The translations under genes and the position numbers were made by a program. A DNA stretch of 4,163 bases from a virus (lineage: Duplodnaviria > Heunggongvirae > Uroviricota > Caudoviricetes): the IMG/VR virus record IMGVR_UViG_2541047896_000024; one strand, 5' to 3'. Below the pieces are notes generated by a model. The model was not told where the DNA came from and searched no databases. It saw only the letters and a list, made by a program, of their open reading frames with translations. This document shows positions 1 to 4,163 of this stretch, in pieces; position 1 is the stretch's first letter, and every line of letters begins with the position of its first letter.

Positions 1-7
1 CATCCAA

Positions 8-40
8 CCGCAGCACGTTCTTGCTTAAGACGTGCTGCGG
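8..40. other. Perfect 10-bp GC-rich inverted repeat with 13-nt spacer (ccgcagcacg / cgtgctgcgg)
   Basis: 8..17 ccgcagcacg is the exact reverse complement of 31..40 cgtgctgcgg. It lies 15 nt downstream (minus strand) of the tfa-remnant stop. No U-tract follows on either strand, so it is not a canonical intrinsic terminator. Confidence 0.35.
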
Positions 41-54
41 CATAATCCCAATGA

Positions 55-183
55 TTACTCCCTGACAGGGTTCGTAGGCCACTCAATATCAGGTGCAGTT
101 GATGTATCAACACGGTTCAGCAACACCCGATACTTTTTCCAGGCTTCCAGCAACGGGGTTTCTTCCTCCGTTGCATATACAGC
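55..183 (-). pseudogene. tfa: 3' remnant (last ~42 codons) of a tail fibre assembly gene; the 5' ~150 codons are missing
   Basis: Minus-strand frame between the in-frame TGA (184..186) and TAA (55..57) translates to [42 protein letters not shown]. This matches the C-terminus of lambda Tfa as I recall it (...[32 protein letters not shown]). There is no start codon or N-terminal Tfa sequence; the upstream frame is closed by a stop. Confidence 0.65.
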
Positions 184-193
184 TCACCTTTTT

Positions 194-487
194 TCACCCA
201 CGATTAACCAACAGCCAGACCAGCAGACACGCCACCACCGGCACAGCAAAATCTATCAGGCTTGCCACATCCCAAACACGCGGATCAAAACCGCCCCACC
301 ACGGCATGTTAATCCACTTGCCATGCCCGAACATTTCAATCCAGCGATATTCTGCCTGGGTGTGTTCACGCGCAATGAAGAACGTACAACCGGCTATCGC
401 CCCGTAAACCCAGTTTCCGGCAAAAAGACCAATCATTACCTGCGCAGCCACAGCACAAAGCGCATGAAGAAAAGGTGTTATATCCAT
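194..487 (-). CDS. Small hydrophobic protein (97 aa), predicted membrane protein with 2-3 transmembrane helices
   Basis: ORF 194..487 (-). AGGAGG Shine-Dalgarno directly follows the stop of the upstream 234-aa gene (minus strand TAA-AGGAGGAGTA-ATG). Hydrophobic stretches at about residues 6-39 (FLHALCAVAAQVMIGLFAGNWVYGAIAGCTFFIA) and 72-94 (LIDFAVPVVACLLVWLLV), separated by a Trp-rich polar loop (KWINMPWWGGFDPRVWD). No cleavable signal peptide or lipobox seen. Confidence 0.6.
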   Translation of the reverse strand: MDITPFLHALCAVAAQVMIGLFAGNWVYGAIAGCTFFIAREHTQAEYRWIEMFGHGKWINMPWWGGFDPRVWDVASLIDFAVPVVACLLVWLLVNRG

Positions 488-497
488 TACTCCTCCT

Positions 498-1202
498 TTA
501 TCCGATATCGCTTTGGGAAGTTGATAACAACTTCAATTCTGACTCAAGTTCATCAACTCTTTCAGTCAGTTTCTGGATATGGTGAATCAGTGGAACAACC
601 AGACGTTCGTACATTACACCTTCGGCAACAAGGCCATTGCTGGAAATGGTTTCCGGTGCATCATCTTCGTTGGCTGGTCGCCAGTGAACAAACTGAGGGG
701 CAATTTCTCCTACTTCCTCGGCAATCAATCCATAGAATCCCCAGTCACGCCTGTCATTTTCGCATTGCGACCTGTACCACACAGGGCGCATCCTGAAAAT
801 GAGATCGGCGTGCTCTGAATCTATCGTCTCTACTGAATGTTTATAGCGGATAGACGATGTTGACCGCAGCACAGACGAAATTGCAGGGTCAGGATTAAGA
901 TAAAGATTTGCCGCCGCTGTAGTTGTGCCCAATCCCCATAAATAAAACGCTTCACGGCCAGTCAGCGGGTAAAAATCTCCGCCATAACGACCACTTTCCA
1001 GATCGTTCACTTCCACTTTGTTTTTCAGCTTATTATCCACTTCTGTTTTTGTGTATCTGGTACTGATATCCTGCTTTGCACTGTCCATATCAGTCTGAAG
1101 CGTTGATACTTTTACGTTAATTGAGGAAATATCTTCCTTTGCCTTACTGACATCTCCCTTTAGCGTTTTGATGTCATCAGGAATTACTGTCGATGTAGCC
1201 AT
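498..1202 (-). CDS. Coiled-coil protein with C-terminal peptidase S74-like domain (intramolecular chaperone / chaperone-of-endosialidase type); tail-fibre-like
   Basis: ORF 498..1202 (-) with GAGGAAG Shine-Dalgarno 5 nt upstream of the ATG at 1200..1202. Residues ~9-69 are charged and heptad-like (DIKTLKGDVSKAKEDISSINVKVSTLQTDMDSAKQD...). Residues 116-225 fit the S74 self-cleaving chaperone domain pattern: S116-SIRY-K121 (Ser-Lys dyad spacing as in the SDRRLK motif), ...LIFRMRPVWYR..., ...WGFYGLIAEEVGEIAPQFV..., ...LVVPLIHHIQKLTERVDELESEL. Domain call is by pattern recognition, not a profile search. Confidence 0.7.
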   Translation of the reverse strand: MATSTVIPDDIKTLKGDVSKAKEDISSINVKVSTLQTDMDSAKQDISTRYTKTEVDNKLKNKVEVNDLESGRYGGDFYPLTGREAFYLWGLGTTTAAANLYLNPDPAISSVLRSTSSIRYKHSVETIDSEHADLIFRMRPVWYRSQCENDRRDWGFYGLIAEEVGEIAPQFVHWRPANEDDAPETISSNGLVAEGVMYERLVVPLIHHIQKLTERVDELESELKLLSTSQSDIG

Positions 1203-1211
1203 TTTTCTTCC

Positions 1212-1493
1212 TCACATCCAGCTACGGAGTTGATGCTCAACAGCAACCACGTATTCATCGAATAATGACGATATTTGCGAATCATTAATGATGCGCACAT
1301 TTACAAAATATCCGTCCTCCTTAACACATACCGGCTCGCCATCTTCAGTAAGTTCTCCGGTTTCTTTGTACACATTACCTATCACGTCAATAAGAATATC
1401 ATCCTGCATCGACTCGTCATCATAATAGCCAATGCTCTCCATAAAGGCCGAAAAGTCGGCCCTGTCTGCAAATTTGAGTGTTAAATCTTTCAT
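1212..1493 (-). CDS. Hypothetical small acidic protein (93 aa), translationally coupled to stf
   Basis: ORF 1212..1493 (-). Its ATG (complement of 1491..1493) overlaps the stf stop (complement of 1493..1495) as TAATG. GGGGGAG Shine-Dalgarno about 8 nt upstream inside the stf 3' end. Asp/Glu-rich, no hydrophobic segment. No family recognised from memory. Confidence 0.6.
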   Translation of the reverse strand: MKDLTLKFADRADFSAFMESIGYYDDESMQDDILIDVIGNVYKETGELTEDGEPVCVKEDGYFVNVRIINDSQISSLFDEYVVAVEHQLRSWM

Positions 1494-3895
1494 TAGATTG
1501 ACTCCCCCATCTGAGCATCAGTCAATGCCTTGTGCCAAATACGCAGATTTCGAACGTGTCCAAATAGGTGACGGTTGCCGGATGATGATTGACCACCAAT
1601 ATTAATGAAGCCTCCTGTATATTTGTGTTTTTTATAAGGAGAAACTACCTTAGCACCAATATTACCGTTAACCACAACACACAATTCTCGACTTTCTGTG
1701 AATCTAAAGCCGATAATGCTTTTTCTCTCTGGTCGTTCTATAACGCTTTTATATTCTATTTTAGTGCCTTTACCATTTGTAATGATTGCGCGTGCTCCCA
1801 AAGATGTATACCCCAAATACATATAACTTTCATCTGCAATTTCAGTTGTATCTCCCGTAGTGGAAATATTAAGAATACGTGCGCTACCTTCTTTGTTTGG
1901 CGATTCATCCCAATTGGTATTAACTTCTGCTAATGAACTAATAGCGGGATTGCACCAATTTAGAGAAATGGGGACCGTTACAATATCGCTGGCGCGTGTT
2001 ACAGGGGATGCGCCTGTTATAATAAACGATGAAGCGCATGCCCCACCTTCAACTTGAGGGGTCGCAATATAAATATAATCATCCGCGCCAGTGCCCACTC
2101 CTTTTGCCGGGGCATACTGAACCATTCCACCTATCATATTTTCTGTATCAAGTGCCTTAATTGTCGCCTCAAAAAAGATCCATTTGCTTGCTTCATCTTT
2201 AACAGCCCTTGCAGTAATGCGATTAGCGGCACCACCCGTCTTATCAATAGATAAATCTGTCGTATTTAAGTAAGCGTCACCTAAGAATGTGTAGGTAGAA
2301 CCATCATAGTTTTCAAATCGTAATCGGCATCTTAAATTTGGAGTGCCACTTTGCACCCTGCATGATATGGTTACATACTTTTCTCCGCCTGTTACATCAA
2401 AACCTTTACTGCCGGAAACGGTTACTATGTTAATCGCTGAAATTTGCCCTACCATTTCTGGTTTTAATGTAAATTTTGCGTACTGGAATCCGAAATCATC
2501 TACACCTGATGCACTTAAGATCATATTTGACGACTTGTTCCATTTAGTCGGATTTGTTGAATTGATTAGCAGGTTAGTTCTTTGCCCCTCAATAAGCAGG
2601 CCATCACGTTCAAATCGTGGCTCGTCAATGGCAGCCTCTGTCAGCACACCAGATTTATTAATGTAAGTTGCTTTCGATGCGCGTTTAAACTTTACAATCT
2701 TGTCGCCAGGCATTGTTATTTCATCGTCGCCAATAACAATTTTTTTATATGATGGCGAAAAGCCCGTAATCATATCCAGTGAATCGTTAAACGGTATCCA
2801 CACATCAGGCAGTGGCTGTAAGACATATTTATACGGCTCTGCTGCCTGACTTGCATACTCTCTGGCTGCGTCTTCACTTGCTTTAGCTGCTGTCTGGCTT
2901 GCTGCCGATGCTTGCGCCGAGTTCGCCGCCGCAGTCTCGCTCGCCTTTGCGTTGGTTTCACTGGTTTTTGCTGCTTTTTGACTGTTAGCTGATGCAGTGG
3001 CAGAAGCAGCCGCCGCGCTTGCAGAACTGGCTGCGGCACTCTCGCTTTGGGCCGCTGCATCCTGACTGCTTTTCGCCGCAGTTTCACTGGCTTTGGCATT
3101 CGTTTCGCTGGTCTTCGCTGCCGTCTGGCTGGACTTTGCGTTAGTTTCACTCGTCTTCGCAGCTTTCTGGCTGTTAGCCGCAGCAGTTGCTGATCCAGCT
3201 GCTGAAGTCGCAGAACCGGCTGCCGCGCTCTCGCTTTGGGCTGCTGCAACCTGGCTGTTTTTTGCCGCAGTTTCACTGGCTTTGGCATTCGTTTCGCTGG
3301 TTTTCGCTGCCGTCTGGCTGGACTTTGCGTTGGTTTCGCTCGTCTTTGCGGCTGTCTCGCTATTTTTCGCGTTGGTTTCTGATTTTTTGGCTGCTGTCGC
3401 GGAGTTTGCCGATGCAGTCTTTGAGGTCGCTGCCGCCTGTGCACTATTAGCTGCATTCGTTTCTGAGGTTTTCGCCGCGTTCTTCGATGATGCCGCTGCA
3501 GTTTCGGATTTCTTTGCCGCCGCTGCGCTCTGAGAGGCGGCTTCAGCGTTGCGTGCCGCTTCTTCCACCATTTCCTCAAAACGACGCAATGCCTCCGGCA
3601 TGACATCATCTTCCGTCATGGCACCGAGAAAATCATTCAGCGTCCCCGGCTTAGAATCTTCATACACGGTGATGGTCCCGGCATGTGAAGGCGAAAAACC
3701 TTCAACCAGCAGGATAACGCTGTACTGGCCATACTCAACATCCATACTGTAACGCCCGGCTTCATCCGGATTTTCTGAGGCCAGCGTGTTCACTACCACC
3801 GTGGTGCTGTTACGTTTTGCTTTCAGCTGGATTGAGCAGTTCTGTACCGGTTTTCCTGTGCCGTCTTTCAGTACACCTGAAATCTTTACTGCCAT
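1493..3895 (-). CDS. stf: Side tail fibre protein, lambda Stf family (800 aa) with a divergent C-terminal receptor-binding region
   Basis: ORF 1493..3895 (-). The N-terminal ~115 aa (MAVKISGVLKDGTGKPVQNC...YSMDVEYGQYSVIL...HAGTITVYEDS...) match the lambda Stf N-terminus as I recall it. G-rich Shine-Dalgarno (GGGGGG) 3 nt upstream of the ATG at 3893..3895. Residues ~118-350 are Ala/Ser/Thr-rich heptad-like repeats (KTSETNA/KSSQTAA...). C-terminal 450 aa are non-repetitive and end in ...GFINIGGQSSSGNRHLFGHVRNLRIWHKALTDAQM, which resembles the C-terminal strand of ConA-like/LamG lectin domains. Confidence 0.92.
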   Translation of the reverse strand: MAVKISGVLKDGTGKPVQNCSIQLKAKRNSTTVVVNTLASENPDEAGRYSMDVEYGQYSVILLVEGFSPSHAGTITVYEDSKPGTLNDFLGAMTEDDVMPEALRRFEEMVEEAARNAEAASQSAAAAKKSETAAASSKNAAKTSETNAANSAQAAATSKTASANSATAAKKSETNAKNSETAAKTSETNAKSSQTAAKTSETNAKASETAAKNSQVAAAQSESAAAGSATSAAGSATAAANSQKAAKTSETNAKSSQTAAKTSETNAKASETAAKSSQDAAAQSESAAASSASAAAASATASANSQKAAKTSETNAKASETAAANSAQASAASQTAAKASEDAAREYASQAAEPYKYVLQPLPDVWIPFNDSLDMITGFSPSYKKIVIGDDEITMPGDKIVKFKRASKATYINKSGVLTEAAIDEPRFERDGLLIEGQRTNLLINSTNPTKWNKSSNMILSASGVDDFGFQYAKFTLKPEMVGQISAINIVTVSGSKGFDVTGGEKYVTISCRVQSGTPNLRCRLRFENYDGSTYTFLGDAYLNTTDLSIDKTGGAANRITARAVKDEASKWIFFEATIKALDTENMIGGMVQYAPAKGVGTGADDYIYIATPQVEGGACASSFIITGASPVTRASDIVTVPISLNWCNPAISSLAEVNTNWDESPNKEGSARILNISTTGDTTEIADESYMYLGYTSLGARAIITNGKGTKIEYKSVIERPERKSIIGFRFTESRELCVVVNGNIGAKVVSPYKKHKYTGGFINIGGQSSSGNRHLFGHVRNLRIWHKALTDAQMGESI
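2846..3545. repeat. Degenerate tandem repeats inside stf: about three 189-nt (63-aa) units with 21-nt (7-aa) sub-periodicity
   Basis: Direct comparison at a 189-nt offset: 3078..3140 and 3267..3329 are nearly identical (gcagtttcactggctttggcattcgtttcgctgg...ccgtctggctggactttgcg); 2944..2999 versus 3133..3188 is about 80% identical. A 21-nt periodicity is visible at 3327..3400 (gcgttggtttcgctcgtcttt / gcggctgtctcgctatttttc / gcgttggtttctgattttttg). Boundaries are approximate. Confidence 0.75.
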
Positions 3896-3959: not shown

Positions 3960-4163
3960 TCAGAATTTATAACCGACACCCACGATGAAACCGTCAGTGC
4001 GCCAGTCACCACTGCCAGAACCTTCATAAGCAATATCAATGGCCACGGATTCGGTCGGGTTAAACTGCACGCCAGCCCCCCACGCCAGAGACGTGTTGCT
4101 GTGGCGACCGTCATCACTTCCGGTCAGCACATCGTGCGTTTTCCCCTTGTTGTCAGTTACGCG
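3960..4163 (-). CDS. lom: 3' end of lom (Ail/Lom/PagC/OmpX-family outer-membrane beta-barrel protein); 5' part lies beyond the window edge
   Basis: Minus-strand translation of 3963..4163 gives ...SLAWGAGVQFNPTESVAIDIAYEGSGSGDWRTDGFIVGVGYKF*, ending in the aromatic-terminal GVGYKF beta-strand typical of this family; stop TGA is the complement of 3960..3962. Position immediately upstream of stf matches the lambda order J-lom-stf-tfa. Confidence 0.85.
   Translation of the reverse strand, partial: RVTDNKGKTHDVLTGSDDGRHSNTSLAWGAGVQFNPTESVAIDIAYEGSGSGDWRTDGFIVGVGYKF

Follow-up and report, generated by a model that had tools for sequence, protein, structure and literature searches.

T4 Imm, P22 SieA and HK97 gp15 are small inner-membrane exclusion proteins whose action follows adsorption and does not depend on the fine specificity of the receptor-binding protein. 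Expression of these proteins occurs early or in the prophage, and gp15, a moron, has its own promoter. Cor of phi80, N15 and T1 and Llp of T5 are outer-membrane lipoproteins specific for FhuA. The genes lom and Z/fun are reportedly expressed from the prophage, and in both T4 and T7 a fibre gene is immediately followed by a holin gene (t after gene 38 and 17.5 after 17, respectively). The gp15 gene of HK97 is reported to lie inside the tail gene region (PMC11364771). Very small phage proteins, namely Iap of the Pseudomonas phage D3 and Gnarl1–3, have been described as changing the surface polysaccharide without being classical enzymes, and small seroconversion effectors of this kind occur in lytic and temperate phages (PMC12373910).

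The window analyzed here is the whole 4,163-nt stretch of the virus record IMGVR_UViG_2541047896_000024. It carries a side-tail-fibre cassette of the lambdoid type, arranged in the order lom', stf, orf93, orf234, orf97 and tfa remnant, with the following features:

lom': 3960 to 4163, first gene of the cassette in the window
stf: 1493 to 3895, minus strand, side tail fibre gene (PF08400, E 1.2e-68; NF048003 at residues 434–635; phrog_1419)
orf93: 1212 to 1493, minus strand, small acidic protein (phrog_1361), start overlapping the stf stop
orf234: 498 to 1202, minus strand, short tail-fibre protein (PF13884, E 4.6e-6; phrog_3299, positions 1147–1384 of 1385)
Shine-Dalgarno sequence of orf97: AGGAGGAG, 490 to 497, minus strand, directly after the TAA stop of orf234 (500–498)
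orf97: 194 to 487, minus strand, 97 aa, ATG at 487–485 and TGA at 196–194, three-helix membrane protein of phrog_1443
codons 40–59 of orf97: 311 to 370, minus strand, signature R40-E41-H-T-Q44-A45-E46-Y47-R48-W49-I50 ... K57-W58, defined by conservation
tfa remnant: 58 to 183, minus strand, 42 codons from the 3' end of a tail-fibre-assembly gene, stop at 57–55, recognized by translation

The stf product is a side tail fibre of 800 aa in which a conserved N-terminal domain is followed by Ala/Ser/Thr-rich repeats and a C-terminal receptor-binding region of the 'head spike fibre' type, for which orf93 is probably the fibre-specific assembly partner. The orf234 protein combines an N-terminal coiled coil with a C-terminal Peptidase_S74 intramolecular chaperone domain. 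Across prophage loci its slot is occupied by orf234 in 50 cases, by a 346-aa gene in 26 and by neither in 7, and in phage 21 it is empty. The tfa remnant, which RefSeq labels 'tail fiber assembly protein, incomplete, missing N-terminus', shows where the cassette is bounded by recombination on its right-hand side. An earlier note on this DNA had placed orf97 at the end of the fibre cassette, and it is indeed the final gene after lom', stf, orf93 and orf234. The same note regarded it as an odd passenger in a tail-fibre operon, a view that we cannot share since prophages of E. coli normally have this gene order.

The ORF listing of the window contains the 97-codon frame at 194–487 on the minus strand. 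The length of this frame carries no significance by itself, and overlapping unsupported frames are longer (e.g. 254 aa on the plus strand at 32–796). The gene is nonetheless genuine and under constraint, because its product matches phrog_1443 over the full length of the profile (E 2.3e-56, residues 1–96 on profile positions 1–96 of 97), homologous clusters exist (556 with a single-sequence query, 982 with a profile), dN/dS among the E. coli copies amounts to 0.17–0.23, a Shine-Dalgarno sequence precedes the start codon and the AlphaFold model is confident. When PHROGs were searched with hmmscan at E ≤ 0.01, phrog_1443 and phrog_34165 alone were returned, each of 'unknown function'. Scans of Pfam, NCBIfam and PADLOC gave no match, a PDB sequence profile search produced a single spurious one (E 0.71), and the model found no informative fold match. 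An exhaustive single-sequence search (315 representative clusters) and the profile search (982) likewise revealed no Pfam domain, no informative name and, leaving out a few metagenomic calls of about 194 aa, no informative domain fusion. The homology check proposed in the earlier note has thereby been carried out in PHROGs, Pfam, NCBIfam and PADLOC, and no relation to a holin, a lysis protein or any other protein of known function emerged. A literature search retrieved no paper on the family.

The approximately 980 clusters of phrog_1443 range over alpha-, beta-, gamma- and deltaproteobacteria, and members from E. coli, Aeromonas and Comamonas are 55–60% identical. Among complete E. coli genomes, 1,895 of 5,426 (about 35%), BL21 included, carry the family gene in up to seven copies each, and throughout these genomes it is annotated as 'hypothetical'. 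It occurs in virulent phages, such as a Kuttervirus-like contig (L007) and the jumbo phage AVP1, as well as in temperate ones. In sum, phrog_1443 is an uncharacterized yet strongly conserved membrane-protein family.

The AlphaFold (AF2) model of the protein has a mean pLDDT of 90.3 and places helices at residues 4–23, 26–53 and 74–96. Kyte-Doolittle hydropathy strongly supports segments 1–24 and 73–96 and weakly 19–39, so that the two to three transmembrane helices expected at the outset correspond to three in the model and to two strong and one weak in the hydropathy profile. Seven of the 97 residues are tryptophans, five of them between residues 49 and 72. Together with the phrog_1443 match, these data agree with the initial description of the reading frame as coding for a small membrane protein with a Trp-rich loop. 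We counted residue conservation over the 148 phrog_1443 representatives below 70% identity. H8 (144/146), R40 (147/148), E41 and W72 (148/148 each) and P83 (146/148) are near-invariant, as are Q44 (145), A45 (144) and E46 (144), and D79 completes a near-invariant polar set comprising H8, R40, E41, Q44, E46, W72, D79 and P83. In the predicted model, the near-invariant residues all lie on one membrane face, and the polar set points to a single conserved target. Residue 58, an arginine in 272 of 297 family members, is a tryptophan (TGG) in the window's copy. One of the loop tryptophans, W58, is hence a lineage-specific replacement of a nearly invariant arginine. Since dN/dS is also raised on the window's own copy, this allele may be impaired.

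The N-terminus, MDITPFLHALC, has no basic n-region of a signal peptide, the residues H-A-L-C do not form a lipobox, and C11 lacks conservation, most family members having I, L or V at this position. The protein therefore looks like an integral inner-membrane protein rather than an outer-membrane lipoprotein, its topology and location both being predicted. Charge counting gives conflicting signals on the topology: the roughly five K/R residues per sequence in the conserved loop of phrog_1443 argue for a cytoplasmic loop, whereas the acidic N-terminal flank and K/R-rich C-terminal tails argue for an N-out/C-in orientation. In orf97 itself just three residues (NRG; the copy ends ...LLVNRG) follow the third helix, compared to an average of 6.5 in the tails of the family.

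The linkage of orf97 to receptor-binding genes, which had been noted from the window, recurs across unrelated phages. In at least seven phage architectures of sipho-, myo- and podovirus type, the family gene ends a receptor-binding module or adjoins one, and in most cases it sits directly behind the fibre or spike gene with a gap of −20 to +27 nt. The elements that harbor it include lambdoid, SSU5-like, P2/HP1-like, hapunavirus and Ackermannviridae elements, DGR-carrying prophages and podovirus-like elements, and the receptor-binding proteins that precede it include S74 fibres, pectate-lyase spikes, DGR-diversified Mtd-like proteins and gpJ. Among close relatives the gene is present or absent, and in related phages it is absent or decayed.

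Despite this linkage, orf97 copies that are 88–100% identical sit behind Stf C-termini that are 34–100% identical (median 49%), and the covariation with the Stf C-terminus is rho 0.04 for orf97 compared to rho 0.50 for orf93. The DNA that the window has in common with other lambdoid phages comprises positions 118–499 only, at about 94.5% identity, whereas the Stf C-terminus and orf93 of the same phages are only 42–56% identical at the protein level. The suggested co-transfer of orf97 with a new receptor-binding half is thus contradicted. At the level of sequence, these comparisons demonstrate that orf97 does not track receptor specificity, and as far as the shared block indicates, the gene forms a module complete in itself whose recombination is not tied to the receptor-binding end of the fibre. 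Because of this independence, we propose that orf97 acts on a conserved host target. A Tfa-like nature did not become apparent either, as orf97 has no Pfam or PHROG Tfa match and does not covary with the fibre C-terminus.

Homologues of orf97 are also found at phage-free chromosomal sites in Aeromonas, Leclercia, Silvania and sphingomonads; hence, the function of the family needs no phage receptor-binding protein. The Aeromonas copies lie in a conserved synteny with pirin, an orf and RIO1 kinase in five loci. Those of sphingomonads have unrelated housekeeping genes as neighbours (ligA, pnp), a setting that speaks for a cellular role of the family. Pfam scans of the chromosomal neighbours (pirin, RIO1, ligA, pnp, DAHP synthase, PhyH, polysaccharide export, cyclopropane synthase, cyclophilin, LigT and M15 peptidase) revealed no functional theme.

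The strong Shine-Dalgarno sequence of orf97 abuts the orf234 stop, and the intergenic gap is 10 nt, an arrangement that indicates probable cotranscription and coupling with the fibre genes. In window positions 1–1600, a simple consensus search, which weak promoters may escape, detected neither a sigma-70-like minus-strand promoter nor a terminator. Since the conserved module holding orf97 begins 12 nt upstream of its ATG, the module appears to have no promoter of its own and to be read with the late genes, and we infer that orf97 is expressed late only, from the fibre transcript. Classical prophage-expressed exclusion is doubtful because no promoter was found in the conserved module. As for the hallmarks of a moron, the simple consensus search gave neither an own promoter nor a terminator, and the base composition is deviant (GC 0.52–0.54 in orf97 versus 0.36–0.46 in orf93 and the Stf C-terminus).

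Since orf97 lies beside a receptor-binding gene, as llp and cor do, and this linkage recurs in many phages, it could be a receptor-specific mask, inactivating the receptor of the adjacent Stf and thereby preventing phage binding to lysogens or cell debris. We consider such masking, which the earlier note had suggested by reference to Cor and Llp, highly unlikely because orf97 does not track receptor specificity: nearly the same protein stands behind strongly diverged Stf C-termini and behind unrelated spikes and fibres, without covariation. In addition, the protein is a predicted polytopic inner-membrane protein without lipoprotein signal (neither lipobox nor n-region, C11 unconserved), homologues reside at phage-free chromosomal sites, and the consensus search revealed no promoter in the module for expression in the prophage state. 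The tight operon linkage and the translational coupling to fibre genes in many phages would also suit a membrane-anchored helper of fibre or virion assembly that folds, matures or attaches the adjacent receptor-binding protein. In E. coli, and remotely in the Comamonas locus L112, where orf93 has a remote homologue, a receptor-binding protein of head-spike-fibre type, an orf93-like gene and the family gene form a three-gene set that is possibly ancient, and in Chelativorans (L110) the family gene directly follows the receptor-binding protein. Such a helper is nevertheless very improbable, as orf97 stays unvarying while the fibres diverge, the fibre covaries with orf93 instead, and no phage genes are found near the chromosomal homologues. 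Moreover, the presence of the gene is patchy in close relatives, and it is intact in the defective Qin prophage of BL21 although stf is truncated there by IS3. We also know of no tailed phage that requires a polytopic membrane protein for fibre assembly.

The invariant His/Arg/Glu/Gln/Asp/Trp cluster on one membrane face of the model resembles a ligand or active site, as would be expected if orf97 modulated envelope glycan or lipid-carrier metabolism as an enzyme, inhibitor or regulator, e.g. in undecaprenyl-phosphate-linked polysaccharide synthesis or export. Made together with the receptor-binding proteins, it would alter surface polysaccharides and so keep progeny or competing phages from unproductive adsorption, a role similar to the one that Iap of D3 and the small Gnarl proteins have been suggested to play. 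The high conservation across bacterial classes and the existence of stand-alone homologues on chromosomes point to a cellular substrate that is itself conserved, the family accompanies O-antigen- or capsule-directed spikes with pectate-lyase and S74 domains, and phage proteins of 40–90 aa that alter the O-antigen are documented (PMC12373910). However, no sequence or fold relation to any known enzyme was found, the chromosomal neighbours show no envelope theme, and neither the family nor the orf97 motif appears in the supplementary files of the Gnarl screen. As sphingomonads have no classical LPS, the target cannot be O-antigen specific. We regard modulation of envelope glycan or lipid-carrier metabolism as unlikely. 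Three transmembrane helices, a length of about 100 aa and late co-expression would likewise be compatible with a lysis-timing factor, i.e. an antiholin or holin accessory that modulates holin triggering (cf. P2 LysA), and in Comamonas, Acidovorax and Pantoea prophages the family gene is located immediately upstream of a holin/SAR-endolysin/spanin cassette. These lysis-adjacent prophages, however, possess a separate holin candidate between the family gene and the endolysin (a small transmembrane protein in L112, L115, L117 and L134), the intervening candidates being either a multi-transmembrane protein of 125–132 aa (c38) or single- or double-transmembrane proteins of 67, 102 and 105 aa. On account of these separate candidates, orf97 was rejected as a holin. 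In L004, another small transmembrane protein separates the family gene from the next downstream genes, and no endolysin was identified there. With respect to class I holins, orf97 has no charged C-terminal tail and is not the sole holin candidate beside an endolysin, and no holin family was matched in Pfam or PHROGs. A role in lysis timing is further disfavoured by the long conserved loop and the very high sequence conservation, by the distance of the lysis genes in E. coli lambdoid, P2-like, DGR and Ackermannviridae contexts and by the dispensability of the gene, which is absent or decayed in related phages; we consider it improbable.

With low confidence, we propose for orf97 a generic role at the inner membrane, exerted by a late-expressed factor that either prevents secondary infection or remodels the envelope. 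The best explanation overall, which we put forward tentatively, is that this late factor acts on a conserved host target and blocks a post-adsorption step of secondary infection. Translated from the late fibre transcript at the time of fibre and virion production, the protein would insert into the cytoplasmic membrane, where the invariant interfacial polar cluster (H8, R40, E41, Q44, E46, R48, R58, W72 and D79) might bind a conserved membrane component. The target would be a conserved component of the host inner membrane or envelope and not the particular receptor of the phage, and a post-adsorption step of secondary infection would be blocked as with T4 Imm, P22 SieA or HK97 gp15, a functional step that we wholly infer. 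Since the family occurs in virulent and temperate phages, a function during lytic growth fits. The chromosomal copies with conserved synteny fit a host-side target, and a phage-excluding factor could have been domesticated there. A generic inner-membrane exclusion role is possible. Against exclusion stands that the family has no homology to any exclusion protein in PHROGs or PADLOC, that late-only expression would not protect an established lysogen, and that exclusion proteins do not usually combine 55–60% identity across genera with a polar set resembling that of an enzyme. Such features would be just as expected of a small enzyme or a regulator in a universal envelope pathway. In a bolder and rather unlikely variant, the family would be a minimal, previously unrecognized membrane enzyme or regulator of a universal envelope component, e.g. 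a polyprenyl-phosphate-linked intermediate, that phages captured repeatedly. Its gene would serve bacteria in a housekeeping or accessory capacity, and in phages of all three tail morphotypes it would have become connected to the receptor-binding genes, so that the host surface is remodelled just when virions are produced. If true, this would represent a new class of phage-host interface factor that is independent of receptor identity.

Whatever its function, the family is among the accessory genes most consistently linked to receptor-binding genes across unrelated phages, yet it is indifferent to receptor specificity. Its function would be relevant to host-range engineering, in which fibre cassettes are usually swapped together with orf97, and would bear on the interpretation of prophage-mediated resistance. 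The family could also reveal small membrane proteins with a cellular role in Aeromonas and sphingomonads, and it is experimentally tractable owing to its small size, confident fold and handful of invariant residues.

When compared to the known systems, orf97 resembles T4 Imm, P22 SieA and HK97 gp15 as a small phage-encoded protein of predicted inner-membrane location, but no promoter was found in its module, it is far more conserved and it has chromosomal homologues. By sequence it belongs to none of these proteins nor to Sie2009 (PHROGs hmmscan at E ≤ 0.01; PADLOC). Like orf97, Cor and Llp are encoded beside receptor-binding genes and were proposed to prevent re-adsorption or superinfection; unlike them, orf97 has no lipobox, has three predicted membrane helices and does not track receptor specificity. 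The Tai tail-assembly-interference systems consist of non-membrane proteins and are unrelated. Gnarl3 binds the cytoplasmic GalU, whereas orf97 is predicted to be polytopic, and no sequence relation between them is known. With lambda S105, T4 t and T7 gp17.5, orf97 shares a length of about 100 aa, three transmembrane helices and the nature of a late gene, and a position next to fibre genes or upstream of the lysis cassette is sometimes common to its family and holins. It differs from class I holins in its conserved 34-residue loop, in the missing charged C-terminal tail and in not lying beside an endolysin in E. coli phages. The P2 Z/fun slot and lambda lom occupy the same genomic niche in or after tail-fibre modules, and in phiHAP-1 the homologue is flanked by the tail-fibre-assembly and sheath genes and so holds the Z/fun position; the proteins are unrelated, and orf97, unlike lom and Z/fun, is apparently coupled to the late transcript. 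In phage 21, the 'putative membrane protein' CPT_21_24 is 88.7% identical to orf97 and is encoded at the same position, after stf and orf92.

The window spans the distal part of a late operon of lambdoid type, with all of its genes on the minus strand:

3960-4163, minus: lom, 3′ part
1493-3895, minus: stf, encoding an 800-aa side tail fibre with PF08400 at its N-terminus and the NF048003 'head spike fibre' domain at residues 434-635
1212-1493, minus: orf93, phrog_1361
498-1202, minus: orf234, Peptidase_S74 chaperone domain; corresponds to the C-terminal 234 residues of the 1385-aa fibres in phrog_3299
194-487, minus: orf97, phrog_1443
58-183, minus: 42-codon remnant of the 3′ end of tfa, directly after orf97 in another frame

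The reading frame, length, strand and position of orf97 are as the earlier note described them. Since longer unsupported reading frames overlap orf97, length alone says little. That orf97 is a real gene is established by an end-to-end match to phrog_1443 (E 2.3e-56), by its homologous clusters (556 with a single-sequence query, 982 with a profile), by mostly synonymous differences among the E. coli copies (dN/dS 0.17-0.23), by a Shine-Dalgarno sequence (AGGAGGAG) at 497-490 immediately past the orf234 TAA and by a confident AlphaFold2 model (pLDDT 90.3, pTM 0.75). The three helices of this model (residues 4-23, 26-53 and 74-96) agree with the earlier description of a small multi-helix membrane protein, and the Trp-rich loop described with it is also present, as Trp accounts for 7 of the 97 residues and five of these lie within 49-72. 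The indications of topology point in both directions. The loop at 40-73 contains, per sequence, about 5.1 K/R and 4.2 D/E, and by the positive-inside rule this favours a cytoplasmic loop; the acidic N-terminal flank with almost no K/R and the K/R-rich C-terminal extensions of chromosomal homologues each favour N-out/C-in with a periplasmic loop. The annotation of the phage 21 homologue gives a TMHMM prediction of N-in/C-in and a SignalP signal; the conserved H8 and Q16 in helix 1 speak against cleavage of a signal peptide.

The window copy encodes Trp (TGG) at residue 58 (codons 57-58, window 311-316), a position occupied by Arg in 272 of the 297 family members and by Trp in only three other sequences. 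Between the window copy and other E. coli copies dN/dS is raised to 0.34-0.50, and to 1.34 for the comparison with BL21, whereas it is 0.17-0.23 among the others. The substitution and the raised dN/dS suggest that this particular allele may be impaired or functionally altered.

We compared orf97 with the receptor-binding end of the fibre across 62 unique E. coli loci, which are the best orf97 matches, so that the range of orf97 identity is narrowed by selection.

Protein identity and covariation with the Stf C-terminus
Stf C-terminal 380 aa: 34-100%, median 49%
orf93: 31-100%, median 88%, rho 0.50
orf97: 88-100%, median 96%, rho 0.04

Despite this selected range, the finding that near-identical orf97 copies are paired with very different fibres still stands. 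Phage 21 and other lambdoid phages share DNA with the window only at 118-499 (about 94.5% identity), a block comprising orf97, 12 nt upstream and the start of the tfa remnant, while identity of the Stf C-terminus and orf93 in these phages is only 42-56% at the protein level. GC content is 0.52-0.54 in orf97 versus 0.36-0.46 upstream. The shared block, the covariation data and the GC content together mark orf97 as a conserved module of its own, placed at the right-hand edge of the exchangeable fibre cassette. The proposal that orf97 was transferred together with a new receptor-binding half therefore does not hold, as orf97 is not part of that half.

Counterparts of the entire window, at about 97% identity, occur in 76 complete E. 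coli genomes. Escherichia phage PhiR49_1 is 99.9% identical over window 1-1494, and the C-terminal 440 aa of its Stf are only 56% identical to those of the window. A recombination breakpoint lies at about 1494 (stf stop/orf93 start), where the orf93-orf234-orf97 block has been joined to a different receptor-binding end. The tfa remnant encodes the conserved C-terminus of the tail-fibre-assembly protein, and its BL21 counterpart, labelled partial Tfa in RefSeq, adjoins pinQ. The remnant has the appearance of a recombination anchor on the right-hand side that stayed behind as the cassette replaced an stf-tfa segment. At window 8-40 lies an 11-bp inverted repeat with perfect arms (CCGCAGCACGT, 11-nt loop, ACGTGCTGCGG) that lacks a T-run. 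In PhiR49_1 this repeat separates the end of the late operon from the convergent ybcY-like gene, and it may act as a terminator in both directions or as a site of recombination. The small acidic orf93 product is probably a fibre-specific chaperone replacing Tfa for this fibre type; Comamonas thiooxydans (L112) has remote homologues of both the Stf C-terminal domain and orf93, the latter following the former. The orf234 product consists only of a short coiled coil and the S74 intramolecular-chaperone domain. Its slot varies between loci, being filled by the 234-aa gene or a 346-aa gene or left empty. The orf234 product may represent a second, branched receptor-binding protein or else be left over from recombination.

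The phrog_1443 family is carried by 1,895 of 5,426 complete E. coli genomes (~35%), with 2 places per genome at the median and up to 7. In BL21 the family gene lies in the defective Qin prophage (L158), where orf93, orf234 and orf97 are intact though an IS3 element truncates stf upstream of them. Gene-order classes were taken from E. coli prophages in IMG/VR.

Gene order around the family gene
E. coli: stf, orf93, orf234, orf97; 50 loci, gap 10 nt
E. coli: stf, orf93, 346-aa fibre gene, family gene; 26 loci, gap 27 nt
E. coli: stf, orf92, orf97, as in phage 21; 7 loci, gap 12 nt
Leclercia: directly after a P2/HP1-like fibre with S74 domain, gap 0; also directly after a CBA120-type tailspike
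Desulfovibrio: directly after a spike with pectate-lyase and S74 domains, gap 0
Chelativorans: directly after a Laminin_G_3 fibre, 4-nt overlap
Sphingobium prophage: directly after a tail-fibre gene
Comamonas, Pantoea and Acidovorax prophages: directly after gpJ, a fibre and a small ORF
SSU5-like phage-plasmid: directly after Stf and orf92
Halomonas phage phiHAP-1: directly after the tail-fibre-assembly gene and just ahead of the sheath gene, the P2 Z/fun slot
160-kb Salmonella-assembly contig: between two tailspikes
Kuttervirus KFSST3: decayed copy in the same tailspike cluster
Halomonas podovirus-like element: 442 nt downstream of a fibre gene, just before internal virion proteins
Dehalococcoidia MAG: just before a spike gene

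From its size and its Tail_spike_N spikes we infer that the Salmonella-assembly contig is Kuttervirus-like. At two betaproteobacterial DGR loci (L116 4785-8054 and L118; Comamonas nitrativorans, Pigmentiphaga humi) the family gene lies between a VR-bearing Mtd-like target gene and bAvd, with the VR at 5810-5928 in the target gene, the template repeat at 6697-6815 and the reverse transcriptase downstream; a gene for a membrane protein is an uncommon addition to a DGR cassette. There are exceptions to the fibre-linked position: a Mu-like Desulfovibrio prophage carries the family gene between the portal gene and a gene downstream of the terminase, in the jumbo Aeromonas phage AVP1 it comes after a putative helicase/terminase gene, and in Aeromonas phage 62AhydR11PP it is surrounded by small genes without annotation. 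It is secure that the family protein travels as the terminal gene of receptor-binding cassettes.

Family members are stand-alone proteins of 90-130 aa from Escherichia, Salmonella, Leclercia, Pantoea, Aeromonas, Halomonas, Comamonas, Acidovorax, Pigmentiphaga, sphingomonads, Devosia, Chelativorans and Desulfovibrio. Five metagenomic gene calls of ~190-194 aa (P0264-P0266, P0268, P0273) contain the whole of orf97 at 86-92% identity and may be orf92-orf97 read-through or fusion calls. Conservation is unusually strong, with 55-60% identity between the E. coli, Aeromonas and Comamonas proteins. We aligned 148 representatives below 70% identity and used a broader alignment in addition; among the representatives H8, R40, E41, Q44, A45, E46, W72 and P83 are essentially invariant and Y47, R48, I50, R58 and D79 nearly so. 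In the model the conserved residues share one membrane face (start of helix 1, end of helix 2, start of helix 3), and helix 2 bears a small-xxx-small motif (G29...G33). Such conservation points to a single conserved ligand or partner, or to a buried network of polar residues, and does not resemble that of a fast-evolving receptor mimic.

The family gene also occurs on chromosomes. At five Aeromonas loci from four species (L003, L092, L093, L094, L098) it lies between pirin and RIO1 kinase genes with no phage genes nearby, and this one conserved, phage-free site suggests vertical inheritance and a cellular role. Leclercia and Silvania carry it at their own conserved chromosomal sites, and in sphingomonads and related alphaproteobacteria the gene ahead of it is ligA (four loci), pnp or another housekeeping gene. 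No functional theme was found among these chromosomal neighbours.

The search of the orf97 strand gave neither a sigma-70-like promoter nor an intrinsic terminator, the conserved module reaches no further upstream than the Shine-Dalgarno, and in unrelated phages the family gene overlaps or abuts the preceding structural gene. Hence, we infer that orf97 is transcribed late, by read-through from the fibre genes. Functions that require expression in a quiescent lysogen lose ground on this reading, and the presence of the family gene in virulent phages points in the same direction.

It is secure that orf97 encodes a real, widespread and uncharacterised three-helix membrane protein. Homology does not reveal its function: Pfam, NCBIfam and PADLOC scans gave no match, no solved-structure relative was found by sequence, a fold search gave no informative match, and every source labels the family 'hypothetical' (phage 21: 'putative membrane protein'). 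Our ranking of possible functions is approximate and leaves the remaining probability to other explanations. We tentatively place first a generic block of secondary infection, in which the orf97 product, made late, would act at the inner membrane. A modulator of an envelope pathway ranks second and is rather doubtful. An accessory role in lysis timing, third, is unlikely, and an assembly helper, fourth, is quite improbable. The receptor-specific mask, one of the candidate roles raised in the earlier note, ranks fifth and is the least probable of these.

We rejected orf97 as a holin since in lysis-adjacent loci another small membrane protein lies between the family gene and the endolysin (L117, 132 aa, multi-TM; L134, 102 aa; L112, 105 aa; L115, 67 aa). 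In L004, where no endolysin was identified, a 125-aa multi-TM homologue of the L117 protein follows the family gene. The family also differs from holins in having no charged C-terminal tail, in its long conserved loop and in being dispensable among close relatives. The arrangement of orf97, with neither promoter nor terminator of its own found and with a conserved module that extends upstream only as far as the Shine-Dalgarno sequence, also differs from that of a classical moron.
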